DNA of 20,000 nt from the IMG/VR virus record IMGVR_UViG_3300042878_002054; one strand, 5' to 3'. Source of the stretch: an uncultured virus (IMG/VR IMGVR_UViG_3300042878_002054). Its lineage: Duplodnaviria; Heunggongvirae; Uroviricota; Caudoviricetes. Below the pieces are notes generated by a model. That model searched no databases. It saw only the letters and a list, made by a program, of their open reading frames with translations, and was not told the DNA's origin. Positions within the stretch are counted from its first letter, which is position 1; every line of letters begins with the position of its first letter. This document shows, one piece after another, positions 1 to 20,000 of the stretch. A program made the translations under genes and the position numbers.

Positions 1-401
1 AAAGGAATAGAGGAACTATCACTACATGTAGCTATCTTTCTTACCGGAATCTTATCTAAAAAGTTGATATATTTCTTAGTTGTGGTGTCGTTATTTGGAA
101 ATAGATAATCATATAGATAATCAATATCGTCTATGAATATAAAGTCTATTCCATCTTTTAAAGAAATCTCTTCTATTACTTTGAGTGTATTTATATTGTT
201 TTCGTCGTCAGAGGATAAAAATCGACATAACTCGTATCTTTGATTAAGAAAGTGTGTTTTCTCTTCAAATTCGTTTGTAGCTGCCAAAAATATTATTTTC
301 ATGTTTAGTTGAGACTTCATATCATAAGCAAGTGCATGCAACGCAGAGCTTTTCCACGTAGCATTACTACCTACTATTATATTGAAGTTATTTTCAAACA
401 T
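1..401 (-). CDS. Partial (runs off left edge) degenerate P-loop NTPase-like protein
   Basis: Not in ORF track. ATG at 401-399 overlaps the stop of the upstream gene (TAATG) and the frame is open to position 1: MFENNFNIIVGSNATWKSS...IDFIFIDDID. Walker A-like GSNATWKS (W in place of G) and Walker B-like FIFIDD. Confidence 0.65.
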   Translation of the reverse strand, partial: MFENNFNIIVGSNATWKSSALHALAYDMKSQLNMKIIFLAATNEFEEKTHFLNQRYELCRFLSSDDENNINTLKVIEEISLKDGIDFIFIDDIDYLYDYLFPNNDTTTKKYINFLDKIPVRKIATCSDSSSIP

Positions 402-1189
402 TATTTATAAGGACAATTTTGTTTCCATTTAGGGTTATACCAAAAAGTTCTTCCGGTGTTGTCTCTACATGATAAGCCTTTCTGATAGAATACCCATTTG
501 AGGAACTCTTCATAGTCTGTATCGAACGGATTCTTCCAATCTTGTAGCTGACCACCATTGAGTTGGTAAGCTTTCATCGGAATATCTCTACACATGTCAA
601 GTATCTCTGGATTTCTTTTTATGACTAAGCGAGCTTCCTCAAAAGGATCAACATCAAGATAGTAAAGAATCGTCGATCTCAAATAGTTTCCAATCCCGTT
701 AAAGTACTTCTGTTCTAAAAGAGCTTCACAGATTGGTTTACTGAAAGGCTTCAGATGAAGATTGTCTACGACGTTGGTTTTAAAGGTTTCAAACTCTTTA
801 GTTGGGTCCGGACCTCTTTTTGTAGCAAATCCACCTACTTTGTATTTTGGTCCCATATAGAGGCCGTAAAGAAGTAAAGACCAGCCATCGGTTGTATCCA
901 TTCGCATTCTGACAAACTTTCTATCAGTCCAATCTTTGGTGGGTATCCAGAGCCAGTTCCCTGACATTCCCATAAAGACGGATATCTTAAAAGATGCAAC
1001 ATCATGATATACTTTTAATACTAATTCTTTACCATTAGATTCAGATTCAAGACGGAAATCTCCATCTGCAAGTGTAAATTCCGAAGGAATATTGCCTTTC
1101 GCTACATCGTATATCTTGTTGAATTTCTTTTCTTTGGCATTGACGTTTATATAGTCAGCCATTATTTTTAATTCTGCTAATTCAGGCAT
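401..1189 (-). CDS. Fpg/Nei family DNA glycosylase/AP lyase, NEIL1-like (zincless finger)
   Basis: N-terminal MPE catalytic motif, GKEL, GMSG, H2TH motif ICEALLEQKYFNGIGNYLRSTILY, C-terminal D-x-x-GRT-x-W with no four-Cys zinc finger. Confidence 0.93.
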   Translation of the reverse strand: MPELAELKIMADYINVNAKEKKFNKIYDVAKGNIPSEFTLADGDFRLESESNGKELVLKVYHDVASFKISVFMGMSGNWLWIPTKDWTDRKFVRMRMDTTDGWSLLLYGLYMGPKYKVGGFATKRGPDPTKEFETFKTNVVDNLHLKPFSKPICEALLEQKYFNGIGNYLRSTILYYLDVDPFEEARLVIKRNPEILDMCRDIPMKAYQLNGGQLQDWKNPFDTDYEEFLKWVFYQKGLSCRDNTGRTFWYNPKWKQNCPYK

Positions 1190-1436
1190 CTAATATGTCG
1201 TTTATTTTTTCGTTTCTTATCAAGTCTTGGTTTAGCTCAATGAGTTCTCTTAGTGATATTTCTCTAGTTACCCATCTACCATGACCAGCATCACTTGTAC
1301 CGGGATTCTCTGTTCCAAACCAAACAACACATTTTGTTCGTTCGTATGTAATATATAGCCCATTGAATTCAGTCTCCATAGAAACCAATATTCCTTCACC
1401 ATATGGTGTGTTTACTTTACTATGTATTCTTAACAT
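1182..1436 (-). CDS. Hypothetical protein (SH3-like N-terminus, C-terminal RNEKINDIL tag)
   Basis: 84-aa ORF overlapping both neighbours; KVNTPYGEGILV resembles an SH3/KOW-like beta barrel start. Confidence 0.7.
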   Translation of the reverse strand: MLRIHSKVNTPYGEGILVSMETEFNGLYITYERTKCVVWFGTENPGTSDAGHGRWVTREISLRELIELNQDLIRNEKINDILDA

Positions 1437-1789
1437 CAGTTACAATTCTTTTTTACCCACTTTACTAATATATCTCCGTGACAAGACTTTCCACCTCCAC
1501 CTTCATTTTTACACCAGCAACCAAGTACTTTATCTTTCAGTTCGTAAAGAGAGCTCATAAGTTCTTCATTTGAAAGAAGATACTCTTCATAAGCAGCAAC
1601 AATATCTTTTCTTGGAGTTCCTGGTGGAAAACTATTTCTGAGTTCTTTTGGATAAGCCCACTTATTGTACTTACCACCCTGCATTCGTCCAATATAAATA
1701 TCGAATGGCTCCTTTTTAAAGTGAACCACTCGAACCTTATGATCATATTTCTTTTCTGGCTTTTTGAAACTGTCAAAAAAATCATCCAT
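1436..1789 (-). CDS. DUF4326-family protein
   Basis: VVHFKKEPFDIYIGR ... LKDKVLGCWCK ... CHGDIL motifs. Start moved from TTG 1822 to ATG 1789, which overlaps the end of the upstream gene. Confidence 0.85.
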   Translation of the reverse strand: MDDFFDSFKKPEKKYDHKVRVVHFKKEPFDIYIGRMQGGKYNKWAYPKELRNSFPPGTPRKDIVAAYEEYLLSNEELMSSLYELKDKVLGCWCKNEGGGGKSCHGDILVKWVKKNCN

Positions 1790-2132
1790 GTCTTTCCTTT
1801 CTAATATCCTGTAATACCTCAATACTAAGATCTAACTCTGGTAGATTCTCGTCTATTAGCTTGATGGCTTCCTTTCTTCCCTTTAGAAACCAATAAAGAA
1901 AGTGCAGTACGGTAAACATAGAAACCGTCATTATGTTTAATTTGAAAAAACCTAAGTATATGAATACTGAAGGTATCGCAAGAAATGGAATAAAGGACAC
2001 AATCCAAAAGAACGTCTCACTGAACAACTTTCTAAGAACCTTACAGAACCAAATATACCTATCTAATTTTCTTTTAGAATAGTACCTGGTCACAATCAGT
2101 TCGTCGTTTTTTACTTCTTGATAAGTTTTCAT
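1782..2132 (-). CDS. Hypothetical membrane protein (2 predicted TM helices)
   Basis: Hydrophobic stretches FFWIVSFIPFLAIPSVFIYLGFF and IMTVSMFTVLHFLYWFL; fits the leftward operon. Confidence 0.75.
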   Translation of the reverse strand: MKTYQEVKNDELIVTRYYSKRKLDRYIWFCKVLRKLFSETFFWIVSFIPFLAIPSVFIYLGFFKLNIMTVSMFTVLHFLYWFLKGRKEAIKLIDENLPELDLSIEVLQDIRKERHG

Positions 2133-2137
2133 TATAT

Positions 2138-2668
2138 TTATTTTATTGGTAAATACATTCCTAATTTCTCACAGCTCTTTACAACCCATTCATTATGTTC
2201 TATAAAAGTCGGATTTACCAAACCAATAGTCATGTGAAGACTGTGAAATGGTGTTCCTAAACCCATAGCAGTTCGTATATTCATAATATCGTCAGAATAT
2301 ACTTTTATGTGCCACCACATCTTATCACCTTTAGTATTACACCTGATAAGAGTTGGATCGTATGTGATTTCCACTTCTTTTCCGTGGAACATATCTTTAG
2401 CTTGTAAATAGATTTCATCATCTACAATATCGTTTATTGCAGTGACGTGAGTTCCACGAACAGGATCGTTAAGTCTTCCTCTCCATTCAAACACGTTTGT
2501 GTCTGGAATACGAAGACCAAATCTTTGTTCTAATAACCATTTGTAGTATTTACAGGTATCGTCTTCATAGAAACGAACCATTGCGACTCTTTTCCAAGTC
2601 GATTGTTGTGCATGTTTTTTAGACACGTCAACAGGATCAAATTCTAATATACCTTTTACTTTAAACAT
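2138..2668 (-). CDS. 2H phosphoesterase superfamily protein
   Basis: Two H-x-T motifs (GTHVTAI, SLHMTIG) about 70 residues apart in a 176-aa protein. Confidence 0.7.
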   Translation of the reverse strand: MFKVKGILEFDPVDVSKKHAQQSTWKRVAMVRFYEDDTCKYYKWLLEQRFGLRIPDTNVFEWRGRLNDPVRGTHVTAINDIVDDEIYLQAKDMFHGKEVEITYDPTLIRCNTKGDKMWWHIKVYSDDIMNIRTAMGLGTPFHSLHMTIGLVNPTFIEHNEWVVKSCEKLGMYLPIK

Positions 2669-2672
2669 ACTA

Positions 2673-2680
2673 CAAATATA
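2673..2680 (-). promoter_or_regulatory. Bacteroidota-type -7 promoter box TATATTTG, 4 nt before ATG (probably leaderless)
   Basis: Minus strand reads TATATTTG-TAGT-ATG; matches the TAnnTTTG consensus. Confidence 0.7.
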
Positions 2681-2687
2681 GCAATTT

Positions 2688-3170
2688 TTATTCTTTTATA
2701 TATGTTATTTTGGATTTATAACAAAAAATACTCCAATATATTATATTTAATATTGGTGTCAAAAACCAGAATACTTTTATATCAAAAACAAATCTAGTAA
2801 TAAACTCAATAGCTATGCTCGTCAATATAGCGATTAGAAAGTACCAAACTAATCTATCAGATTTCTTTGAAAAAAGATACTTTTTAAATTTGTTTATTCG
2901 AGTAGCATCAGGAAATCCTGATTTTACAAACTGATCCAAACTTTCTTCTCTTTTACAAGCAACACAAAGTTTAAAATCTTCTTTTTGTAACATAGCAGCA
3001 AAGTCTGTGTAATCTAAATCATCGTGATTAACATCGGTAGAACAGCTATAACACTTCTCGCCTCTTCTTACTTCGAATGTTATTGACTTGTACTTTTTGA
3101 TTCGCCTGGTTGAATATATGAATCCAAAAATCAATGCGAAAAATTGAAGAAAAGTTAAAAAAGCTACCAT
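2688..3170 (-). CDS. Membrane protein with CxxC...CxxC zinc ribbon
   Basis: N-terminal TM helix, CYSC and CVAC, two C-terminal TM helices. Confidence 0.75.
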   Translation of the reverse strand: MVAFLTFLQFFALIFGFIYSTRRIKKYKSITFEVRRGEKCYSCSTDVNHDDLDYTDFAAMLQKEDFKLCVACKREESLDQFVKSGFPDATRINKFKKYLFSKKSDRLVWYFLIAILTSIAIEFITRFVFDIKVFWFLTPILNIIYWSIFCYKSKITYIKE

Positions 3171-7895: not shown

Positions 7896-8657
7896 ATGGG
7901 ATTCAATTATAATTTCACCTATATAATCAGTTATAGACATAGTGTAGAAAGACTGAATAATCTAAAAAGAACATTGGAGTGGATAAACGCTTTTTCCGGT
8001 GCAGAGATTATTATAGTAGAACAGGACAAGCATTCAAAGCTTAAAGACATCAAATTACCATGTAGACATATTTTTATAAAATCAAACATGCCTTTCAACA
8101 AGTCTTGGGGATTCAATGTAGGATTAAAATATGCGAATTCAAACGTAATAGTATTTGGTGATTCTGATTTGATAATGGACCCACAAGAGTTTATCAAATC
8201 TGTAAAGATGTTAGACCAATACGAGATGGTCAATCCTTATAACTCTGTTATTGACCTAACTCCACAAGAATCTGGTGCCGGTTTTGAACAGATAATGCAA
8301 ATCAACAGAGCAGGTAGAGGAGAAACTGATATTCAGAAAGTTCCTTTATGTGGTGGAATCTGTATCTTTAGAAGAGAAGCTATACATAAGATTGGTGGAT
8401 GGCACGAGGACTTTATCGGTTGGGGCGGAGAAGATGATTTTCAGTCAGTTAAGGTAAAAGCATTCTTAAACTGGTATGAAAATAAAGCAAAATGTTTCCA
8501 TATCTATCACGATAGATCTGCACCAGATATGAAATGGTATCAAAGAAATCTTCAACTTCTTCAAAAACTTAGTCCAATGAATAAAGAAGAGTTGCAAAAA
8601 GTGATAAACAACGTCACTCCAAAATCAGGTTTGAAATACAAATATGACAACTTTTAA
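7896..8657 (+). CDS. GT-A glycosyltransferase (GT2 / galactosyltransferase GT7-C-like)
   Basis: IIIVEQD, FNKSWGFNVG, DSD (DxD), GGWHEDFIGWGGEDDF, FHIYH. Confidence 0.9.
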   Translation: MGFNYNFTYIISYRHSVERLNNLKRTLEWINAFSGAEIIIVEQDKHSKLKDIKLPCRHIFIKSNMPFNKSWGFNVGLKYANSNVIVFGDSDLIMDPQEFIKSVKMLDQYEMVNPYNSVIDLTPQESGAGFEQIMQINRAGRGETDIQKVPLCGGICIFRREAIHKIGGWHEDFIGWGGEDDFQSVKVKAFLNWYENKAKCFHIYHDRSAPDMKWYQRNLQLLQKLSPMNKEELQKVINNVTPKSGLKYKYDNF

Positions 8658-9378
8658 TGATAAACTAAAATCAATCTGTAACTACTCTGAAGAAAATAAG
8701 AGTATAGGTCCAACTGCCCAATTGATGTATATGGATATGATAGTAGAAGACGACGAGACTAGAAGAGAGGTAAAGAGAAAGAAAAGAAATCTTACAATAG
8801 ACACCGTTTTAGATGAGGTAGACGAAAACGGAGACTACACATCTGAGACAATATCTTCAGAAGAAGGATCTATTGCGACAATATCTCCAAAGATCATGAC
8901 TCTAAATACTCAATCAAATCCTTTTGTAGATGATGAGAGTTTATACAATAATGTAATCACATTTTTAGAAAGTAACACAAAACAAAAACACCATTATCCA
9001 ATAAGTCTTGATTATGTGGCGATGAACGACCCACATAGTACATTAGAGGAAAACAACGCAATAAACTTCAGAAGGATTATAACAAAGATTGCACACGCAT
9101 CCAACTTTATCGCAGCAGAAGGAAGAATGGGTCCAGGAACCGCAGTGATTGTCGGTAGAAATAACTGGCATTGGTTCGATAGTCAATCAGATTTTATGCT
9201 TGGAACTATTTCTATTATATTAGATGAAAACATTAGTCCAAATAAGATTATAGTCGCTCGTGGTGGTAGAATGGATCAGAGTGGTATTATATGTGTAAAA
9301 AGTATACCAGATAATACTTATTGTCTAAAAGAAACTCCACATTGGGAAAAACAATATGTATGGTTTACTGTAAAATAA
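8644..9378 (+). CDS. Hypothetical protein with a C-terminal segment resembling part of T4-type major capsid protein gp23
   Basis: IITKIAHASNFIAAEGRMGPGTAVIVG ... IILDENISPNKIIVARGG recalls gp23 'IARQTGRGEGNFII ... VYIDQY...FTVGYKG' (recalled, not aligned). Confidence 0.55.
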   Translation: MTTFNDKLKSICNYSEENKSIGPTAQLMYMDMIVEDDETRREVKRKKRNLTIDTVLDEVDENGDYTSETISSEEGSIATISPKIMTLNTQSNPFVDDESLYNNVITFLESNTKQKHHYPISLDYVAMNDPHSTLEENNAINFRRIITKIAHASNFIAAEGRMGPGTAVIVGRNNWHWFDSQSDFMLGTISIILDENISPNKIIVARGGRMDQSGIICVKSIPDNTYCLKETPHWEKQYVWFTVK

Positions 9379-9960: not shown

Positions 9961-9964
9961 AGTT

Positions 9965-10003
9965 TATATATAAATATTTCCTTCTGGTATATCTTATATA
10001 TTA
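9965..10003 (-). promoter_or_regulatory. Two T(A/T)ATATATA elements (putative late promoters)
   Basis: TAATATATA at 10003-9995, and TTATATATA at 9973-9965, 4 nt before ATG 9960. Confidence 0.5.
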
Positions 10004-10005
10004 TT

Positions 10006-11277
10006 TTAAAAAAGGTGAAATTCCTCATAAAGCTTTGTTTTGAATATGGCTTCGACCTCATCTCTTTTATTTCTTGGTATTATTATACTATCGTGAACAG
10101 TAACTATTTTTATTTCTGGAAAAGAATTTTTAACTTCTCGTATTATTTTATTGAAGATTAAATTAGACTCTGCTTTTTGTAGTTCATATGCCAAAACTTT
10201 ATAGTCTCCTTTTTCCTTTTTGTATAGTTTTATGAAATTGTGTATAGTTGGAAATAGTTCTCTGAACACTTTGTCTGCTTTGCTATTGTGAACGTTTCTT
10301 CCAAATAAGACTTTGTACGTCATTTCTTTGACCATAGGACGATCATTTGTCTTCATATGATTCATTACGTGTTGGTAGTAGTTTCCGTTTACCGTAAGGT
10401 CTCTAAATAGCTCAAACTCCTCGGTGTTTACCCATTTAGAGTTACTATCTGCTATTATCTTAGTAAGGAACAAAGGTTGACTATTCTTTATGTCAATCTC
10501 ATGTGTTTCCTCACCATCCAATAAAAGACAGTTCTTTCTAATGAAAGATTTTAATATAGTGAAGTTTGTGTGCATTCTTCCGTAACTATCAAAATGATAG
10601 AATATATGTTTGTCGTTCACACATTCAACAGAGTATCTGTTTCTGTTATATATGTCAGTGTCGTTGTGTTGAAGATTATCTAAATAGAATATGGCTCTAT
10701 CAAACTCTATCTTTGTATAGAATAGGTCGTCTACAAGCATCGCTTTTATATCTGCGTCTATTAATCCATTTTTTATTCCATCTTCTTCTACTTGTGATAC
10801 CTTGTTTTTGTACTTCTTCAAAAGAGTCGTGTCTTTGTTGACGTATCTCTTTATTTTTCCTTTAAGTATGTGTTCTGATATCTTATAGACTTTGGCGTTT
10901 CTACCTGCTCTATAGTTTGCGACCATAGATATGGTCTTCGTTTCTATTAGATAGTCCATATAGTAGTTGTATAGGTGTCCGTACTTCTCTTTGAGAATGG
11001 TGGACATGAGATGAAATCTGTTGTCTTTTTTGAAATAGTATTTCAGTATTAAGTTGTGGACTATATCTAAAGCATATGAAGACTTTAGTTTTTGACCTTT
11101 ATATTCGAAGTTTTTGTTTTTTGAAAATTCCTCCATCGATTCTGGTAAAAACTGAAGACTGTGTTTTTTGTCTTCTAGTTTCTTTCTGATATTGGAATAG
11201 CCACTGATTTTGAATAATGGTACGATTGAATTTTCACTCATACATTTTATATCCACTAGTTCAGGATATGTTTTCAT
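10006..11277 (-). CDS. Divergent family-A / T7-RNAP-like palm-domain nucleotide polymerase, no exonuclease
   Basis: GRMHT pre-motif, motif A EIDIKNSQP, motif B RPMVKEMTYKVLFG, FPTIHNFI, LQKAES, motif C TVHDSII. Confidence 0.75.
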   Translation of the reverse strand: MKTYPELVDIKCMSENSIVPLFKISGYSNIRKKLEDKKHSLQFLPESMEEFSKNKNFEYKGQKLKSSYALDIVHNLILKYYFKKDNRFHLMSTILKEKYGHLYNYYMDYLIETKTISMVANYRAGRNAKVYKISEHILKGKIKRYVNKDTTLLKKYKNKVSQVEEDGIKNGLIDADIKAMLVDDLFYTKIEFDRAIFYLDNLQHNDTDIYNRNRYSVECVNDKHIFYHFDSYGRMHTNFTILKSFIRKNCLLLDGEETHEIDIKNSQPLFLTKIIADSNSKWVNTEEFELFRDLTVNGNYYQHVMNHMKTNDRPMVKEMTYKVLFGRNVHNSKADKVFRELFPTIHNFIKLYKKEKGDYKVLAYELQKAESNLIFNKIIREVKNSFPEIKIVTVHDSIIIPRNKRDEVEAIFKTKLYEEFHLF

Positions 11278-11489
11278 GATTCGTAAATTTTGCGAACCTT
11301 TGATCTTCTACCTGAAGTTCTGTTAATATCCTTCCATTCTTTCATAAGAGTTGCCTCTATTTCAGAGACATGGTCCATACCATACATACTCTGTAAATCA
11401 GTCGCTAGCTCGCGGGTCCATTGAGCACGCAAAGGTCTTGTCTCTGTTTTTACTTCAACAGAGGTCATCTTTAAATCTATAGATTTCAT
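11274..11489 (-). CDS. 71-aa protein resembling an internal fragment of T4-type major capsid protein gp23
   Basis: VEVKTETRPLRAQWTRELATDLQSMYGMDHVSEIEATLMKE versus gp23 'IEAKSRQLKAAYSIELAQDLRAVHGMDADAELSGILATE' (recalled); start/stop overlaps with both neighbours. Confidence 0.7.
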   Translation of the reverse strand: MKSIDLKMTSVEVKTETRPLRAQWTRELATDLQSMYGMDHVSEIEATLMKEWKDINRTSGRRSKVRKIYES

Positions 11490-12885: not shown

Positions 12886-12942
12886 TATATATATAAAATT
12901 GATATGGTGCTTTTTTAAACAAACATGTCGGGTACATATATA
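12886..12942. promoter_or_regulatory. Divergent pair of TATATA elements (putative late promoters)
   Basis: Minus-strand TTATATATATA at about 12897-12886 before ATG 12859; plus-strand ACATATATA at 12934-12942 before ATG 12950. Confidence 0.45.
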
Positions 12943-12949
12943 ATGTCAT

Positions 12950-13888
12950 ATGAAGAAACTGCTATTTATTGTGCCTCATCTTTCCACAGGAGGAATGCCA
13001 CAATTCGTTTTAAAACAGATAGAGATTCTAAAAGAGGAATACGACATATCTCTTGTAGAATGGGAAAATATAACAGGTGGAGTATATGTCGTTCAAAGAA
13101 ATGCAGTAGAAAGTATTCTTGGTTCTAAGTTTTATAGTCTTAGTTTAAATAAAACAGAACTTCTGAGTATTTTGTCTGATGTCGAACCAGATATAGTTCA
13201 TTTTCATGAAATACCAGAAACGTTTGTCAATGTTGGAATACTAAACAACATCTATTCTGCAGATAGAGACTATCATATAGTAGTGACGACACATTCGTCA
13301 ACCACTAATCCATCTACTATAAAATATACTGCAGATAGATATGTTCTTGTTTCTGAATGGAGTAAAGATGTCTTTGATAAATTCTTCAAAGGTGAGATTG
13401 AGTGTGAGGTCTGGGAGTATCCTATTGAGAAATATGAATATGACAAAGATTCTGCAAAAGAAGAGCTAGGTTGGAACAAAGACTACAAACATATTTTGAA
13501 TGTTGGTTTATTTACAAGAGGTAAAAATCAAGGTGAGCTTTTTGAACTAGCAAAAGAATTCGAAAATGAAAAGGTTATGTTTCATTTCGTAGGAAATCAA
13601 GCAGTAAACTTCAAAGACTATTGGGGTCCTATTATGGAATCAATACCTAAAAATTGTATTGTTCATGGAGAACGAAACGACGTAGATAAGTTCTACAAAG
13701 CCGCAGACCTTTTTTACTTTACTTCCAACTTTGAATTAAGTCCTTTGGCAGTGAAAGAGGCTTTGAGTTATAACTTACCTACATTCATAAAAAAGTTACA
13801 CACATACAAAAACATGTATGATGAGAAAGTAACCTATATAGTAGGTGACAAATCTGAAAATAAAAAGAATATATTAAGATATGTATAA
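12950..13888 (+). CDS. GT-B glycosyltransferase, GT4-like
   Basis: PHLSTGGMPQ, PDIVHFH, LNVGLFTRGKNQ, FYKAADLFYFTSNFELSPLAVKEALSYNLP (E-x7-E). Confidence 0.92.
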   Translation: MKKLLFIVPHLSTGGMPQFVLKQIEILKEEYDISLVEWENITGGVYVVQRNAVESILGSKFYSLSLNKTELLSILSDVEPDIVHFHEIPETFVNVGILNNIYSADRDYHIVVTTHSSTTNPSTIKYTADRYVLVSEWSKDVFDKFFKGEIECEVWEYPIEKYEYDKDSAKEELGWNKDYKHILNVGLFTRGKNQGELFELAKEFENEKVMFHFVGNQAVNFKDYWGPIMESIPKNCIVHGERNDVDKFYKAADLFYFTSNFELSPLAVKEALSYNLPTFIKKLHTYKNMYDEKVTYIVGDKSENKKNILRYV

Positions 13889-15902
13889 AGCATTGAAAAA
13901 AAATCCTAATCCAATAAAGGATGTAAATCCTATAAAATTTATATGCAACTACAACGAAGGTGCTTATTTAGAAGTTCAGTCGGAACTTGAAAGAAAATTC
14001 AAAGTTGAATTTACCAACTCAAAAGGTCAGATTGAATACTCTACTGAGATTGGATCAAATATGTGGTGTAGAACCAGTAAAAAATATGTAGAAGAATACA
14101 CATGTACCGTAAAGGACGAATCGGGTAAAATAGTCTTTGTTGAAAAGTACAATCCTACAGGCAAAAGAGTTTATATAACACTCGAATCAAAATCACTTGG
14201 TGATACTATGGCTTGGTTTCCTTATATTGACGAATTTAGAAAAAAGTGGAAATGTACTGTAGTTTGTTCAACATTCCACAACAATCTTTTTATAGACCAA
14301 TATCCTGATCTTGAGTTTGTATCACCAGGAACAAACGTGCCTGAAATATATGCAACCTATAGAATAGGTTTATTCTTTATGAATGAAAAAATTGATTATA
14401 GTAAGCATAGAAAAAATCCTACAAAGATTTCATTGTTAGAAATGGCTACAGATATACTTGGATTGGAATACTCTGAGATTAGACCAATATTGAGACCATC
14501 ACGAGTAGAAAAGAAAAAGAAAAGAGTTGGTATCGGAATGCATTCGACTGCACAGACGAAGTATTGGAACAACCCAACAGGATGGCAAGAGTTAACAGAC
14601 TTTTTGTTACTACAGGGTTATGAAGTAGTTATGATGTCTAAAGAGGCAGATGGTTATATGGGTAACTTTTATCCAAAAGGAGTTATTAAACTTCCAGAAA
14701 ACTCATTTGATGATTTGATTGATAATCTTTACTCTTGTGAGTTCTTTATTGGAATAAGTAGTGGACTTAGTTGGCTTGCTTGGGCGGTGAATATACCGGT
14801 AGTACTTATATCTGGATTTACAGGAGAGTATATGGAACCCACAGACAATGTAATAAGAATAATAGAAAAAAGTGTTTGTAACGATTGTTGGGCTAGACAT
14901 AAATTTGATCCAGGAGATTGGAACTGGTGTCCTGACCACAAAGGAACTCCAAGACAATTCGAATGTAGCAAATCGATAACACCGGAGATGGTCATCGAAT
15001 CTATGATATCAAACGGACTTTTAGGCGGAGAAAAGATTGTAAAGGACACTATAAAGTCTATCATATTCTATTCCGACGCAAACTACGAGTATCAAGCCAA
15101 ATCATTGGTGGAATCGATATTGATGAACACGGAAGAAGACATTAAAATGTTTTATTACACTATAGGATTTGAGTCTTCTATAGAACATGAAAGACTTACT
15201 AAAATCGAGATACCTATCGATGCGAGCAAGCCTACGGGATATAGAACTTTTGAGTTTTACAAACCAAACATTATATTAGAGCATTTGGATAGATTTGGTG
15301 GAAAAGCACTTTTCTTAGATACTGATATCATAGTAGGTAGAAGATTTGATATTAATTACTTTGAGAATAAAAACGATTATCCGTTATTGGCAAATGGTAA
15401 CTGGTCTTATCCTTATGCGTTTGAAGGAACACAAAGATATGACGAGGGTGCTTTGATGAAGTATTTTGGAGTATCTGAAAGATCAATGGAATATGTTTAT
15501 TCCAACATAATAAGCTTTTCTGAAAGATGTAGAGACTTTATAATGGAGTGGAAATCTATATGTGATAATCAGTATCTTCTTTCAAAGAGAAAAGTATTTT
15601 TCCCGTTTCCTGATGAGACTGCCATAAATGTAGTTCTTTGGAAAAGAAACGCGACAAAAAACCTTGGAAGAGTATATCTAAATACTTTAGAGTTTGAACC
15701 TTTTGAATATGTTGAGAAAAACGACGATATAAAAGGAGATCCTAAAATAAACAACGGAATAATGGGAAGTGATCTTTTAAGATGTGACAACTCATCTAAA
15801 ATAATGTTATATCATGGAATAAAAGATAAAGATGTTCTTGATAAAGTTGTTGAGTATATGAAAGTCAAAAATGAAAAAGTTAAATCTTTACAAACATTAT
15901 AA
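13881..15902 (+). CDS. TibC/Aah-like protein O-heptosyltransferase fused to a C-terminal GT-A (GT8-like) domain
   Basis: SLGDTMAWFPY (D108), STAQTKYWNNPTGW, FFIGISSGLSWLAWA, VVLISGF and four-Cys site C333/C336/C350/C362 (CNDCW...WCPDHKGTPRQFECSKSIT); C-terminal FYKP, LFLDTDII, DETAINV, YHG. Confidence 0.9.
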   Translation: MYKALKKNPNPIKDVNPIKFICNYNEGAYLEVQSELERKFKVEFTNSKGQIEYSTEIGSNMWCRTSKKYVEEYTCTVKDESGKIVFVEKYNPTGKRVYITLESKSLGDTMAWFPYIDEFRKKWKCTVVCSTFHNNLFIDQYPDLEFVSPGTNVPEIYATYRIGLFFMNEKIDYSKHRKNPTKISLLEMATDILGLEYSEIRPILRPSRVEKKKKRVGIGMHSTAQTKYWNNPTGWQELTDFLLLQGYEVVMMSKEADGYMGNFYPKGVIKLPENSFDDLIDNLYSCEFFIGISSGLSWLAWAVNIPVVLISGFTGEYMEPTDNVIRIIEKSVCNDCWARHKFDPGDWNWCPDHKGTPRQFECSKSITPEMVIESMISNGLLGGEKIVKDTIKSIIFYSDANYEYQAKSLVESILMNTEEDIKMFYYTIGFESSIEHERLTKIEIPIDASKPTGYRTFEFYKPNIILEHLDRFGGKALFLDTDIIVGRRFDINYFENKNDYPLLANGNWSYPYAFEGTQRYDEGALMKYFGVSERSMEYVYSNIISFSERCRDFIMEWKSICDNQYLLSKRKVFFPFPDETAINVVLWKRNATKNLGRVYLNTLEFEPFEYVEKNDDIKGDPKINNGIMGSDLLRCDNSSKIMLYHGIKDKDVLDKVVEYMKVKNEKVKSLQTL

Positions 15903-15915
15903 AAACAATAAAAGT

Positions 15916-16296
15916 ATGATTTTAGTAGAAGTAAGTATAGGTGAGATATTGGACAAACTGACAATATTGAGTATTAAAAAGAATCGTATTTCAGATCCTG
16001 AAAAACTTGTTCACATAGGGAAAGAGTATGATATATTAGAAGAGAAATCAAAACATTATCTTGATTCTAAAGAAGTGAAAGATTTGTTTGACGAACTCAT
16101 TGATGTAAATTTGAAGCTTTGGATAATCGAAGACGATTTGAGAGATTTAGAGTCACAGAAAAGATTCGATGATGAGTTTGTACAAAAGGCCAGGCTGGTA
16201 TACATGACCAACGACCTTAGATTTAAGTTAAAGAACCAAATAAACCAAATAACAAACTCTGGAGTTCAAGAACAAAAAGGATATAAGGTGTATTAA
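15916..16296 (+). CDS. DUF6165-family protein
   Basis: VEVSIGEILDKLTILSIK ... LWIIEDDLR ... FVQKARLVYMTNDLRFKLK ... EQKGY. ATG 15916 preferred over the overlapping 15871 start. Confidence 0.85.
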   Translation: MILVEVSIGEILDKLTILSIKKNRISDPEKLVHIGKEYDILEEKSKHYLDSKEVKDLFDELIDVNLKLWIIEDDLRDLESQKRFDDEFVQKARLVYMTNDLRFKLKNQINQITNSGVQEQKGYKVY

Positions 16297-17253
16297 ATGA
16301 AAAAGTTGATAATAATAGACACATATCCAAAAGCAGAGGAACATATAGATTGTCTAAACGAATGTGTAGATAGATTGTCAGGTAAGGGATATGACCTTAT
16401 GATAGTATCACACTATCCTGTTCCATTGGATATTCAAGAAAAGGTGGATTATTATATTTATGACAAAGAAAATATTTTAATGCCATACAATCTAACGCCA
16501 TATAGTTGGATGTCTAATGAATCATTTTACCTACAAGTAAATGCACAAGGACATGGTATTACTATATGTAAGAATATGTATAATGGTATATCAACTGCAA
16601 AGTCTTTAGGATACGATTTCTTCTTTTTTATGGAAGCAGACAATCTTCTTCATGAGGAAGATGTCATATTATTAGATAATCTTCAGTCCAAAATGAAAGA
16701 AGAAGATAAAAAAATGATATTCTTTAAAAGTAAAGAGGTTACTTATAACTTTTATGAGACATTGATATTTGGAGGATCACCAGAGTATTTTATGAATAGT
16801 ATAAAGTTACCACTAACTGTGGAAGAGTATGTAGAATGGCTTTCTGAAAACGGTTCTTTTCTTTCTGAATCACTGGAAATGACCTTCTATAAAAAGTTTT
16901 TAGAAAAGGAAAGACTTTTGGTTATAGATGAGAGTAGCGAGATTTTTTTTAAAAACAGCTTAATAAACAAATACTCTGGATCCGACAACCTTTGTGTTGT
17001 GATAACAAACAACCTAAACAATCAATTCATTCTTTTCTTAAAGAACTTTGGAGCGAAGACGGTCAATTTTAAAGTAAATGATGTTGATAACATAACCGAA
17101 CCGGGGTGCTGGTCTTATAGGTTTGTTGAGAACAATGCCGAAATATCGGTAGTGATGTATCAGAATGATGAGATAGTTGGAAGAAAGTACTTTTTAGTCA
17201 ATGAAGAAAATAGAAGTAAGTTTACCGAAAATGGATTTTTAAAGTTCAGATAA
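16297..17253 (+). CDS. Putative GT-A-like glycosyltransferase
   Basis: LMIVSHYP...VDYYIYDKEN, AKSLGYDFFFFMEAD (ExD after a hydrophobic strand), SLE; last gene of a GT operon. Confidence 0.6.
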   Translation: MKKLIIIDTYPKAEEHIDCLNECVDRLSGKGYDLMIVSHYPVPLDIQEKVDYYIYDKENILMPYNLTPYSWMSNESFYLQVNAQGHGITICKNMYNGISTAKSLGYDFFFFMEADNLLHEEDVILLDNLQSKMKEEDKKMIFFKSKEVTYNFYETLIFGGSPEYFMNSIKLPLTVEEYVEWLSENGSFLSESLEMTFYKKFLEKERLLVIDESSEIFFKNSLINKYSGSDNLCVVITNNLNNQFILFLKNFGAKTVNFKVNDVDNITEPGCWSYRFVENNAEISVVMYQNDEIVGRKYFLVNEENRSKFTENGFLKFR

Positions 17254-17285
17254 AAAAAAGAGAGTCAAATGACTCTCTTTTTTTT
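17252..17285. terminator. Bidirectional intrinsic terminator
   Basis: A-tract, GAGAGTC-aaat-GACTCTC, T-tract, between convergent genes. Confidence 0.88.
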
Positions 17286-18103
17286 TATTTTCTTACGTTT
17301 ACCTTAACTCCAAGACTTTTTTTGACAGGAGCCTTAGGTTTTGAACTTTTACTTTCGTTTAGTTTTACAGTTACCTTTTTAGATACTTTAACAACAAACT
17401 TATCTTCCCATGGTGTGAATAGATTTCCGTCTGCATTTACTTCTAACTTAATGTTTCCTGTTTGTCCTTCGTTGAAGATACCAAGTTTTTTGATAGGAAT
17501 TATACATTTACCTTTCTTTATCTCACCAACAAACATAAGTGTCCAATCTTCAGATTCAATAATAAGTCTTACTTCAGTATCGTTTTGATTTACACCTTCA
17601 ACTGCGATGTCGCATACGAAATCTTCTGCTTTGTCTTTGAAAAGTTTGTAGTATTCTTCTGATTCGGATTTTGATTCATCTAAGTCTTCAAGTTCCTCGT
17701 TATCATCTTCATCATAGTATGGATTGTGCATACTTCGGTCTTTATAATCATTGTTTACAACCGGATTTCTTTTCATTCCACTTCCATCACATTCTTCACA
17801 ACCTGTACCTTCACAAGGTTTGCAAAATGGAGATTCAAATCCAAAATCATCATCATCCTCATCTTCTATTTCTGAAGAAGGAACTTTATAAGGATTGAAT
17901 TCCTGGTTTATCTCTTCATCATCTTCACCATCTTGTCTTTGAATATGACCTGCGAATATACCACTATCGTCATCTTCTTCATCATTGTATCCTTCTCGGT
18001 CTGAGAACAATCCTTCTTTTACAAGATTGGACTTCATCTTTTGTAAATCGTCTAGTTTTCCACCAGTCACAAAATCATCAAATTTGAATATATCTTTTTC
18101 CAT
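17285..18103 (-). CDS. Hypothetical protein: F(D/E)xF leader, acidic region, CxxCxGxG Zn knuckle, beta-rich C-domain, basic tail
   Basis: MEKDIFKFDDFV; D/E tracts; CKPCEGTGCEECDGSG; C-terminal beta-strand pattern. Confidence 0.8.
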   Translation of the reverse strand: MEKDIFKFDDFVTGGKLDDLQKMKSNLVKEGLFSDREGYNDEEDDDSGIFAGHIQRQDGEDDEEINQEFNPYKVPSSEIEDEDDDDFGFESPFCKPCEGTGCEECDGSGMKRNPVVNNDYKDRSMHNPYYDEDDNEELEDLDESKSESEEYYKLFKDKAEDFVCDIAVEGVNQNDTEVRLIIESEDWTLMFVGEIKKGKCIIPIKKLGIFNEGQTGNIKLEVNADGNLFTPWEDKFVVKVSKKVTVKLNESKSSKPKAPVKKSLGVKVNVRK

Positions 18104-18107
18104 AACT

Positions 18108-18116
18108 TATATATTA
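18108..18116 (-). promoter_or_regulatory. TAATATATA element (putative late promoter)
   Basis: Exact motif 4 nt before ATG 18103. Confidence 0.6.
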
Positions 18117-18119
18117 TTT

Positions 18120-18521
18120 TTAAAAATCAATTTTTACACTAACTGCTTCCTTTATGAATCTTTCAAATTCGTTTACAGAAACTTTTATATCATCTATAGG
18201 AGATCGAGACTCTTCATATTCTATTCCCTTTACTCGACAGAATACCTTAATTAGTTTTTTAGTCTTTTCATCACCAATTTCTTTTTTAACCTGCATCCAA
18301 GGATTACCATCGACGTATTCCTTCATTCCAGAGCCACCACCTCCACCTTTTCTTATAAGTTGTTCTACTTCTAATAGAATAAATATCTCATCCCAGGTAA
18401 GATTGACATTTTCCCAATTGATTGTCATCTCTTCCCATTTAAGCCATTTCTTACCAGTAGCGACTTCTTCGTCAGTCCAGTTCAAATCACTATTTAGTAG
18501 TGGTGAATATTTAATCGGCAT
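18120..18521 (-). CDS. Hypothetical protein with periodic Trp N-terminus and Gly linker
   Basis: KWEEMTINWENVNLTWDEI (W every 7), GGGGGSG; preceded by a TAATATATA element. Confidence 0.8.
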   Translation of the reverse strand: MPIKYSPLLNSDLNWTDEEVATGKKWLKWEEMTINWENVNLTWDEIFILLEVEQLIRKGGGGGSGMKEYVDGNPWMQVKKEIGDEKTKKLIKVFCRVKGIEYEESRSPIDDIKVSVNEFERFIKEAVSVKIDF

Positions 18522-18540
18522 TTTGTTTTATAAATTTCAT

Positions 18541-18586
18541 TATATATTAAATATCTCATGTTGGGATTCATGATACTTAATATATA
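18541..18586. promoter_or_regulatory. Back-to-back TAATATATA elements (divergent putative late promoters)
   Basis: Minus strand 18549-18541, and plus strand 18578-18586 (5 nt before ATG 18592). Confidence 0.6.
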
Positions 18587-18591
18587 CTCAT

Positions 18592-20000
18592 ATGAACTAC
18601 AATTTGACGGGAGCGACAGTTTCTTCTACCTATGGTAGACTGGTACAGACTATAAACGGATCTTTTTACGATGGATATGGAAGTCTACTGAATCCATTTG
18701 GAGCTACGACCAGTAATATATCGATTCTTTGGACAGGTGACTGGGACCAGGATATGAATTACTATATGATGGATGCAGTCAAATACAATGGCAATACATA
18801 TGTCTGTATAGATGGAGACTACTACTATACAGCCACCGCTCCTTTCGATTCTCCTGACCAACTCATGAGTGGCACTGCATCAACCTGGGCATTATTCACA
18901 CCATCAACTGTTTTGAACTCAAGCACTTTCATGCTTGACGTATATGATACTATCTCCAACGAAGGAACAGGAAGATTGTTGGTTTCTGATGGAACTTCTT
19001 ATAAGTCTGTAGCTCAAGAAAATCTTACTTTTGATGGTTCGACACTTACAATAAACGGAAATCTGAGAGTAATCGGAACTACATCGACGATAGGTTCTGA
19101 GAATCTTATAGTAAAAGATCCTATCATTGTACTGGCAGATGGACAGACAGGAACACCATCTTTTGATGCTGGTTTTTTTGTAAATAGAGGAACTGGTGCA
19201 ACTCAGGCTATGATATGGGATGAATCAGAAGACGAATTCGCGTTCGTTCAGACAAATAGTAATTCAAATGTCTATGGAAACGTAAGTATCGCTACATATT
19301 CGAATATGAGGGCAAATATAGGAAACTTCTCTAATATAGAAGCTATAGGTGCGACTTTTTCATATGTAGATATCGATGATATATCAGTAAGTTTAGGATT
19401 CATATCAGAGTTGGAGGTAGATAACATAATAGGAGACTCTGCATCGTTTTCAAGTATATTTGTTACAAACGCAACTTTCTCAAATGTATCTATATCGGAC
19501 ACAATCACAAATACTCTTGTTATAACCAATCTTAGTGCGACATCATCTGCTGTAAAATATGTTGTGATAGATGATGCAGGTGATACTTATTATCAGGAAA
19601 GAGAACCTAGTACTTCTGGAACTTCTGGTACATCAGGAACTTCTGGAACATCAGGAACTTCTGGTACATCAGGAACTTCTGGGACTACAGGAACTTCAGG
19701 AACTTCTGGAACTTCGGGGACTACAGGAACTTCTGGTACATCAGGAACTACGGGTACTTCTGGTACTTCTGGAACTTCTGGTACATCAGGGACTTCTGGT
19801 ACTTCTGGTACATCAGGAACTACGGGTACTTCGGGTACTTCGGGGACTACAGGAACATCAGGAACTACGGGTACTTCTGGTACTTCTGGAACATCAGGAA
19901 CTACGGGAACTTCTGGAACTTCTGGAACTACGGGTACTTCTGGTACTTCTGGAACATCAGGAACTACGGGTACTTCGGGGACTACAGGAACTTCTGGTAC
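18592..20000 (+). CDS. Partial (runs off right edge) virion fibre/adhesin-like protein with CBM5/12-like module and (Gly-Thr-Ser/Thr)n repeat
   Basis: Not in ORF track (no stop in window). [19 protein letters not shown]...[27 protein letters not shown]...[37 protein letters not shown]...DAGFFVNRG...[10 protein letters not shown]...[14 protein letters not shown]. Confidence 0.85.
19612..20000 (+). repeat. 9-bp coding tandem repeat, about 43 units in window, encoding T-(S/T)-G
   Basis: Units ACT TCT GGA / ACT TCT GGT / ACA TCA GGA / ACT ACA GGA / ACT ACG GGT, all in frame; continues past the window edge. Confidence 0.97.

Follow-up and report, generated by a model that had tools for sequence, protein, structure and literature searches.

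A candidate phage-encoded protein O-glycosylation cassette beside a collagen-like Gly-Thr-Ser repeat fibre gene

The four-gene operon and the collagen-like open reading frame

The locus described here lies in a 20,000-nucleotide stretch of DNA (hereafter the window) from an uncultured virus of the Caudoviricetes (IMG/VR record IMGVR_UViG_3300042878_002054). The window is AT-rich (G+C about 30-40%) and phage-like in gene content, with members of PHROG families, an M28 peptidase, a Fapy-type glycosylase-like gene and a fragment resembling a T4-type major capsid protein. Our subject is an operon of four plus-strand open reading frames (ORFs) in close succession at 12950-17253, encoding a GT4 enzyme, a fusion of a TibC/Aah-like domain with a GT-A domain, a DUF6165 protein and a GT-A-like protein, together with a fibre-like ORF that follows at a distance of 1338 nucleotides (nt) and runs into a long Gly-Thr-Ser repeat. 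Their parts are as follows (aa, amino acids).

12950..13888, plus strand: ORF1, 312 aa, GT4-family (GT-B) glycosyltransferase (PF00534, E 4e-13, 49.7 bits against a gathering cut-off of 26.4; PF13692, E 4e-08)
13881..15035, plus strand: ORF2 (673 aa, 13881-15902), residues 1-385, TibC/Aah-family GT-B protein O-glycosyltransferase domain (PDB 4rap, TIGR04414)
15036..15902, plus strand: ORF2, residues 386-673, predicted GT-A fold domain with the DxD motif D480/D482 (AlphaFold2, pLDDT 84.8, pTM 0.87)
15871..16296, plus strand: ORF3, DUF6165 protein, 141 aa from the first ATG (PF19662, E 3e-14, 53.3 bits against a gathering cut-off of 27)
16297..17253, plus strand: ORF4, 318 aa, N-terminal 220 residues with a predicted GT-A-like nucleotide-diphospho-sugar transferase fold (AlphaFold2, pLDDT 66.5)
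18592..19617, plus strand: N-terminal 342 residues of the fibre-like ORF, Ser plus Thr 24%, of no known family (from translation)
19618..19998, plus strand: collagen-like (Gly-Thr-Ser/Thr)n repeat of 42 uninterrupted complete triplets (32 GTS, 10 GTT), proline-free (Pfam, triplet counts, Tandem Repeats Finder)

A preliminary description of this DNA had named the operon and its four domains, and matches in Pfam, the PDB and NCBIfam, together with fold matches, confirm both; its coordinates, counts and residue numbers are likewise right. The comparison with TibC that it proposed is clear in its outcome. Residues 16-375 of ORF2 align with TibC over the full length of the latter (PDB 4rap, E 5.2e-49), the domain being 33-36% identical to TibC/Aah-type enzymes, and the NCBIfam Aah/TibC equivalog TIGR04414 (autotransporter strand-loop-strand O-heptosyltransferase, BAHT) is matched with 275.1 bits against a curated cut-off of 200, residues 23-374 covering model positions 15-370 of 374. 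The TibC-like family has 720 representatives at E <=1e-30 among 1.84 billion, mostly multi-enzyme fusions; fusions of 500-2000 aa make up the greater part of the top 150.

The residues on which TibC depends are largely retained. The available part of the TibC structural study (PMC4358343) identifies Asp-110 as the catalytic base, Thr-226 and Lys-230 as holding the beta-phosphate, Trp-305 as contacting heptose O4, and Cys-339, 342, 358 and 370 as binding a ferric ion. We aligned 78 dereplicated enzymes, comprising that of the window, those of viral and bacterial loci and three plasmid BAHTs. D108, in an LGD motif, falls in the column of TibC D110, which is marked by the D110A crystal variant 4rb4, and Asp occupies it in all 78 clusters. 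T223, K227 and W298 correspond to Thr-226, Lys-230 and Trp-305, with Lys and Trp in 78 of 78 clusters and Thr in 72 (Ser in the other 6). All four cysteines (C333, C336, C350 and C362, aligned with the iron ligands of TibC) are present in every cluster, and iron binding is predicted for them. Both the aspartate and the cysteines had been pointed out earlier. The ORF2 domain is very probably an active TibC-family transferase.

The remaining domains are also those of sugar-handling enzymes, though they are less readily placed. Their distribution was followed in an enzyme-first set drawn from IMG/VR, consisting of the best 80 of 260 relatives of the TibC-like enzyme with 10-kb flanks. ORF1, which also matches a glycosyltransferase family of PHROG (phrog_2170, E 1.3e-10), has a homologue accompanying the TibC-like gene in 56 of these 80 viral loci. 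For the GT-A domain of ORF2 the top Foldseek match is 1k4v (E 1.0e-8, TM 0.54), and the nearest fold is that of the retaining GT6 alpha-1,3-Gal/GalNAc transferases; its DxD motif (D95 and D97 of the alignment) is invariant in 12 of 12 sequences. The same residues, 386-673, gave no match in Pfam, PHROG or NCBIfam and are only 9-13% identical to their fold matches, so that a place within GT6 does not follow from sequence. ORF4 resembles KdsB, IspD, TarP, TarS and SpsA in Foldseek (E 6e-7 to 1e-4, TM 0.33-0.39) and may be either a glycosyltransferase or a sugar nucleotidyltransferase, which the predicted fold does not tell apart; its C-terminal 100 residues are modelled poorly, and it has no family match in Pfam, PHROG or NCBIfam. 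H39, D51, D56, N59, H86 and D115 are invariant in the ORF4 alignment, and homologues occur in 18 of the 80 loci. ORF3 has tblastn homologues in only 2 of the 80. Its start at Met16 (15916; 126 aa) may be the real one, in which case the 32-nt overlap with ORF2 becomes a 13-nt gap. DUF6165 protein clusters are both viral and bacterial, and a literature search found no paper using the term.

The fibre-like ORF (18592-19998, plus strand) is open at its 3' end, where it runs off the window. The preliminary description saw in it a mucin-like stretch of at least 43 T-(S/T)-G triplets with more than 80 hydroxyls. The count holds, 42 complete G-T-(S/T) triplets being equal to 43 in the T-x-G register, with 84 hydroxyl residues; as to character, it is more than a mucin-like stretch, the repeat being of the G-X-Y collagen type. 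Pfam Collagen (PF01391) matches it with E 2.6e-17 (score 62.8 bits, cut-off 27.2), and PHROG tail-fibre families do so with a best E of 9.4e-24. Synonymous codons vary along the array, and the repeat is therefore maintained at the protein level. The N-terminal part gave no PDB sequence match, and we found no solved counterpart for a proline-free (GTS)n; a region homologous to the N-terminal part precedes collagen-like repeats in 11 of the 80 viral loci. Pfam recognized Collagen alone in full-length fibre homologues and named no C-terminal receptor-binding domain.

Genomic pairing of the TibC-like enzyme with collagen-like repeats

Enzyme and repeat recur together in viral genomes, whichever of the two is used as the starting point. 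We counted as a G-X-Y ORF any with at least 8 consecutive G-X-Y triplets, and as Ser/Thr-rich one with at least 50% Ser/Thr at X and Y. Such an ORF is present in 42 of the 80 enzyme loci and is Ser/Thr-rich in 40. After dereplication, a Ser/Thr-rich G-X-Y ORF lies within 10 kb in 24 of 46 enzyme clusters, at a median distance of 2.5 kb and at less than 2 kb in 10 clusters. In the opposite direction, the (GTS)n segment retrieved 71 viral loci, and a TibC-like gene is present in 22 of them; for comparison, the enzyme occurs in only 4 of 50,697 deposited phage records. Many of the repeat-first loci without the enzyme are cut at the repeat, and when whole contigs were searched for nine such loci, four carried a TIGR04414 match above the cut-off elsewhere, including both of the two records at least 90% complete.

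Among deposited sequences, LR756501 has a G-X-Y ORF 4.8 kb from the enzyme, LR756503 gave the same hit coordinates, and LR756504 has no G-X-Y ORF within 15 kb of the enzyme. The sole cultured-phage record among the four with the enzyme is that of Microcystis phage Mel-JY01 (L168), in which GT4 and TibC-like domains are fused in one gene. Upstream of this gene, and separated from it by one 'structural protein' gene, lies an open frame (2-3049, plus strand) that encodes at least 1016 aa and contains 162 G-X-Y triplets, 83% Ser/Thr. The collagen-like gene seems to have been missed, since the deposited annotation has in this region two hypothetical genes on the minus strand and a short gene on the plus strand.

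The pairing extends to bacteria. A first scan, with one genome per species, gave 13 loci, 10 of which have a Ser/Thr-rich G-X-Y ORF nearby. In Methylobacter, Methylomicrobium, other Methylococcales and Gammaproteobacteria, the repeat protein gene lies 20-225 nt from the enzyme gene; the neighbour, a protein of 230-340 aa, carries a signal peptide and 10-29 triplets of the GTS type, together with one or two small domains that contain Cys. In Methylobacter luteus the pair of enzyme and (GTS)n genes sits between mfd and housekeeping genes, in neither a prophage nor a lipopolysaccharide (LPS) cluster, and mirrors the arrangement of aah-aidA and tibC-tibA. A profile-based scan extended the bacterial set to at least 634 relatives; among the best 80 of these a Ser/Thr-rich G-X-Y neighbour is present in 22, mostly those most like the window enzyme. 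The genes of more distant relatives, among them those of Burkholderia, Paraburkholderia, Enterobacter and Franconibacter, are followed directly downstream by an ORF of 1300-1970 aa; the plasmid BAHTs sit directly upstream of genes annotated as AIDA-I or AIDA-repeat, a layout that the distant bacterial relatives share.

Three side observations concern these bacterial loci. In L155, L156, L158-L161 and L164 (methanotroph and other gammaproteobacterial chromosomes), the repeat of the small secreted (GTS)n proteins, each encoded next to a TibC-like gene, is followed by one or two copies of a domain that is about 90 residues long, has conserved Cys (motif ...LLVIPCVDV...) and belongs to no known family. 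The homologue of a Bradyrhizobium metagenome-assembled genome (L202) has Asn at the position of the catalytic Asp and keeps its G-X-Y neighbour; either the copy is inactive or the sequence is in error, as may be the case here. On an Acetobacter oryzoeni plasmid (L167), the TibC/Aah-type gene stands between two large 'Hint domain-containing' proteins and not beside an AIDA-type autotransporter, and these neighbours may represent another substrate class of the TibC family.

In the phylogeny, the repeat-associated enzymes are cleanly set apart from those next to long autotransporter-like ORFs. An IQ-TREE analysis of 78 rows placed the three plasmid BAHTs apart from the remaining 75, at full support, and grouped the window enzyme with those of loci L001 and L002. 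In a FastTree analysis of 155 rows, a branch with support 100 set apart 49 rows holding all 24 labelled as autotransporter-associated (by our own proxy, which asks for an ORF of 1200 aa or more no further than 1.5 kb away and for the absence of a G-X-Y ORF), 25 unlabelled rows and none of the 71 G-X-Y rows, 22 of which had been found through the repeat. The window enzyme fell on the opposite side, outside the BAHT clade. The window contains no autotransporter gene such as adjoins a BAHT gene; the neighbour is the collagen-like ORF.

A control within the phage lineage itself was provided by a second glycosyltransferase gene of the window:

7896..8657, plus strand: GT2-family glycosyltransferase with a galactosyltransferase-type C-terminal motif (PF00535, E 3e-08; PF02709, E 5.5e-09; phrog_1721)

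This gene and an overlapping ORF of 244 aa that belongs to no family occupy 7896-9378 on the plus strand. The GT2 gene retrieved 17 loci sharing the block M28-GT2-p244-p185-p423-p486, and the block is conserved with or without a TibC cassette nearby. The cassette follows p486 in 8 of the 17 loci. A collagen-like ORF lies inside the locus in three of these; of the other five, four end at the flank limit, yet their contigs show a collagen-like ORF. Where the cassette is absent from the p486 site (9 of 17), a G-X-Y ORF was found in none of the nine, and three of these nine are the contigs of L026, L027 and L029, in which cassette and collagen-like ORF lie together about 60 kb away. The cassette and the collagen-like ORF thus travel together. 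The GT2 enzyme is possibly a further member of the glycosylation set.

Could the cassette instead remodel the surface polysaccharide of the host (LPS core, O-chain or capsule), for example against superinfection, its proximity to the fibre gene reflecting no more than a shared variable host-recognition region? GT4, GT2 and GT-A enzymes are typical polysaccharide transferases, and the GT9 fold (PF01075, E 2.3e-07) is shared with LPS heptosyltransferases. In pelagimyophages, glycosyltransferases, collagen-repeat proteins and rfaE are found among the tail-fibre genes of a hypervariable host recognition cluster; the available part of that study interprets the transferases as enzymes that alter the O-chain of the host, and in that part no TibC-like enzyme is named and no link to the collagen-repeat proteins is drawn (PMC7029224). 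We nevertheless judge polysaccharide remodelling quite unlikely here, given that the enzyme passes the cut-off of the protein-glycosylating family and not that of an LPS heptosyltransferase family (compare TIGR02193, 31.5 bits), that the methanotroph modules of enzyme and (GTS)n protein lie among housekeeping genes outside LPS clusters, that enzyme and repeat move together in the lineage, and that the enrichment among repeat-first loci (22 of 71) is far above the base rate.

The bacterial enzyme-repeat pairs, which have no link to DNA modification, also bear on the idea that the cassette glycosylates phage DNA, in the manner of the T-even glucosyltransferases, or a small molecule. Phage glycosyltransferases are often assumed to be DNA modifiers (PMC10202952, in the part available), and a Fapy/Nei-type DNA glycosylase-like gene at 401-1189 could be cited in its favour. 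None of the four cassette proteins resembles known DNA glucosyltransferases in family and fold searches, however, and the TibC family acts on proteins (PMC4358343, as far as available), so that this explanation is very improbable.

A model for glycosylation of the repeat

We think it probable from these comparisons that the phage encodes, in this operon, a protein O-glycosylation cassette that serves its own collagen-like fibre, with the (GTS)n repeat as the likely acceptor of the TibC-like domain of ORF2. We propose the following model. In the cytoplasm of the infected cell, the TibC-family domain would move a first sugar from a nucleotide sugar to the Ser and Thr hydroxyls at the X and Y positions of (Gly-Thr-Ser)n, with Asp108 acting as the base and Thr223 and Lys227 holding the beta-phosphate. 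The glycan would then be extended by the retaining GT-A domain fused to it, by the GT4 enzyme and perhaps by the GT-A-like ORF4; as to whether the products of the three other genes contribute to this one glycan, we regard the matter as evenly balanced. The product would be a densely glycosylated, proline-free collagen-like rod, whose sugars, standing in for hydroxyproline, would stabilize or stiffen the triple helix and would shape the surface of the fibre.

How do known systems compare? TibC-TibA and Aah-AIDA-I of E. coli (BAHT; TIGR04414; PDB 4RAP/4RB4; PMC4358343) share with the ORF2 domain the fold, the family and the catalytic and iron-site residues, and there too the enzyme gene adjoins a gene for a long, repetitive, Ser/Thr-rich surface protein. 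In E. coli that neighbour is a beta-helical autotransporter, whereas here it is a G-X-Y collagen-like protein. The phage enzyme also differs in belonging to the sister clade that holds all G-X-Y-associated members, in having Leu for Arg-286, in its fusion to a GT-A domain and the company of three more genes, and in being phage-encoded. TibC uses ADP-heptose as its donor and forms a dodecameric ring.

Phage enzymes that glycosylate their own virion proteins have reportedly been described in mycobacteriophages by Freeman et al. in 2023 (Cell Host Microbe); capsid and tail-tube subunits are said to be the targets, at their C-termini, and the enzymes to lie outside the TibC family. In BclA of the Bacillus anthracis exosporium the repeats are mostly GPT, and we know of no TibC-family enzyme involved in its glycosylation. 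According to the part of the source available, BclA's collagen-like region lacks hydroxyproline and is densely O-glycosylated in filaments of the surface (PMC10050317). The BclA glycan is a rhamnose/anthrose oligosaccharide made by enzymes unrelated to the phage cassette. The cuticle collagen of Riftia pachyptila carries galactosylated Thr, and glycosylated Thr contributes to its thermal stability (the available part of PMC10141479, citing Mann 1996 and Bann 2000), which would provide a physical reason for glycosylating (G-T-S)n, although Riftia collagen is an extracellular protein of an animal and its enzymes are unrelated to those of the cassette. Our literature search found no paper linking a TibC-type enzyme to collagen-like or phage proteins, and what appears to be new is a substrate class and a host range for a known enzyme family.

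Several observations weigh against the proposed glycosylation of the fibre. The evidence for the repeat as acceptor is comparative genomics throughout, and the counts do not represent independent events, because the 22 repeat-first loci have a G-X-Y ORF by construction and many loci are related. In the phylogeny, the autotransporter label is confirmed by annotation for only two of the three plasmid loci, the third adjoining a Hint-domain protein, and FastTree flagged a long-branch join. The operon and the fibre ORF are not co-transcribed, since two minus-strand genes separate them; the preliminary description gave the gap correctly as 1.3 kb and left these genes unmentioned. We infer a virion or fibre role for the ORF from the match of its collagen repeat to PHROG tail-fibre families, which is its sole basis.

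The identity of the sugar is a further difficulty. In TibC, Arg-286 contacts adenine N1 and is the basis of ADP-sugar specificity, and the R286A substitution abolishes or largely diminishes activity (PMC4358343, in its available part). Leu279 replaces this residue in the window enzyme, and Arg is kept in only 7 of the 78 clusters (the three plasmid BAHTs and four viral). No HldE-like gene (domain I or II) was found in five contigs of the window lineage, one of them 90% complete, so that heptose, if it is the sugar, must come from the host. Heptose, as put forward in the preliminary description, is thus not established; homology alone would make it the first sugar, which seems to us possible and rather doubtful. 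In the second bacterial set (the best 80 of at least 634), the equivalent of Arg-286 is kept in 52, of which 9 have G-X-Y neighbours, and because these nine keep Arg the residue does not track the type of neighbour. We considered loss of Arg-286 as a marker of another donor sugar or of a collagen-type substrate and rejected it, the T4-like clade described next, with its heptose-kinase-like genes, also lacking Arg.

This clade also bears on the choice of acceptor. No G-X-Y ORF lies within 10 kb in 22 of the 46 viral enzyme clusters, and 15 of the 22 form a single clade of T4-like phages with portal and terminase genes adjoining (L076 and relatives, namely L006, L014 and L053-L079). The order of genes, in a conserved block directly ahead of terminase and portal, is a fibre of 2000-2500 aa with a Peptidase_S74 chaperone end, a GT4-methyltransferase fusion, the TibC-like gene, a PfkB kinase and a cytidylyltransferase-like protein of 924 aa. 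The best match of the kinase is rfaE domain I, or heptose-7-phosphate kinase (E 1.9e-26; its 93 bits fall far short of the cut-off of 345), and with the cytidylyltransferase-like gene it may form a phage-encoded route of sugar activation. Because the clade adjoins a giant fibre that is not collagen-like, the acceptor of the enzyme may not always be a collagen-like repeat. That the giant fibre is a cryptic collagen was considered and rejected, each protein having no run or one run of at least four G-X-Y triplets. A G-[ST]-[ST] array was found elsewhere, 45 kb from the enzyme, in one of three searched contigs (27-64% complete); the two contigs without it are 62% and 27% complete. The preliminary description had taken frequent occurrence of the operon in genomes without Ser/Thr-rich repeat proteins as counting against its proposal, and this clade bears that out in part, within 10 kb, alongside the 24 clusters in which the pairing is present.

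One may therefore ask whether the TibC-like enzyme modifies some other protein, whether of the virion, of the host or the acidic protein with zinc-finger-like motifs encoded between cassette and fibre gene, with the collagen-like ORF a bystander in the structural module. The position of the enzyme gene after a giant, Ser/Thr-rich and non-collagen fibre in the 15-cluster clade speaks for this explanation; the known TibC substrates are beta-helical passenger domains and not triple helices (PMC4358343, as far as available), and the Acetobacter homologue adjoins Hint-domain proteins. Set against this, the minimal bacterial modules hold only the enzyme and the (GTS)n protein, the association with G-X-Y is found on nearly all of the tree's non-autotransporter side, and at least one contig of the exceptional clade does have the distant G-[ST]-[ST] array, so that we regard another acceptor as unlikely. 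The fibre as acceptor, as first suggested in the preliminary description, draws support from co-occurrence in both search directions, the bacterial pairs, co-movement in the lineage and the split in the tree; the overall reading is only partly supported.

What would glycosylation of the repeat imply? Many large aquatic phages would build fibres whose surface is mostly phage-specified sugar, with consequences for host recognition, protease resistance and the annotation of fibre genes, and the substrate range of a virulence-associated enzyme family would widen from autotransporter adhesins to collagen-like proteins. It would also provide a microbial case of a triple helix in which glycosylation takes the place of hydroxyproline. 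A broader proposal, put forward tentatively and in our view falling a little short of probable, is that beside the TibC family there is a large sister clade, so far undescribed, in big aquatic phages and several bacterial orders, whose dedicated substrates are proline-free Gly-(Ser/Thr)-(Ser/Thr) collagen-like proteins, nearly every X and Y being O-glycosylated in place of hydroxyproline to give a sugar-sheathed 'glyco-collagen' rod. If so, these proteins would make up a new class of structural glycoprotein in prokaryotes and viruses, and many phage fibres would meet their hosts through a self-encoded glycan coat. The idea is directly testable by co-expression of the enzyme and a repeat segment in E. 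coli, and a minimal version of only two genes is found in the cultured Methylobacter luteus.

Regulatory signals and neighbouring genes

The operon is flanked by the following signals, and two genes lie on the minus strand between it and the fibre ORF.

12886..12944, plus strand: candidate AT-rich TATATA-type promoter elements upstream of the operon, TATATATATAAA at 12886-12897 and TATATAAT at 12937-12944
17252..17285, no strand assigned: hairpin terminator with a 15-pair stem between an A run and a T run, closing the operon and also serving the convergent minus-strand gene
17285..18103, minus strand: acidic protein of 272 aa with two adjacent CxxCxGxG motifs and no family in Pfam, PHROG or NCBIfam (from translation)
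18120..18521, minus strand: protein of 133 aa, syntenic with the fibre gene in relatives of the phage (ORF and homologue comparison)

TATATA-type elements upstream of both units, reported in the preliminary description, were found and are over-represented: the window has 25 copies of TATATAWW where 9.9 are expected (2.5-fold), a number reached in none of 200 shuffles. Near the operon and the fibre ORF the sites are at 12886-12897, 12937-12944 and 18539-18586, and a TATAAT-like hexamer upstream of ORF1 ends at 12944. These octamers may be a promoter motif of the phage. A sigma-70 promoter scan of the window was at chance level (31 found, 32.0 expected). Other TATATAWW sites are, for example, at 1146, 2695, 9963-9974 and 18108, and the octamers as a whole lie mostly just 5' of gene starts on either strand. 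The terminator of the operon was graded strong.

Homologues of the acidic 272-aa protein occur in 6 of the 80 viral loci, all of them syntenic, between the cassette and the fibre gene. Since this position is kept in the six relatives, the protein might be a fibre assembly factor. Its CxxCxGxG motifs resemble the zinc-finger signature of DnaJ.

No near-identical DNA match over 12950-17253 was found among deposited phages, Rfam and tRNA scans of the window were empty, and PDB sequence searches with the 486-aa and 423-aa proteins of the conserved block gave no usable match. Between the genes of these two proteins, an ORF of 71 aa (11274-11489, minus strand) matches only positions 132-187 of the T4 major capsid model PF07068 (E 1.3e-9; phrog_138) and looks like a free-standing capsid-protein fragment within a conserved non-structural operon.

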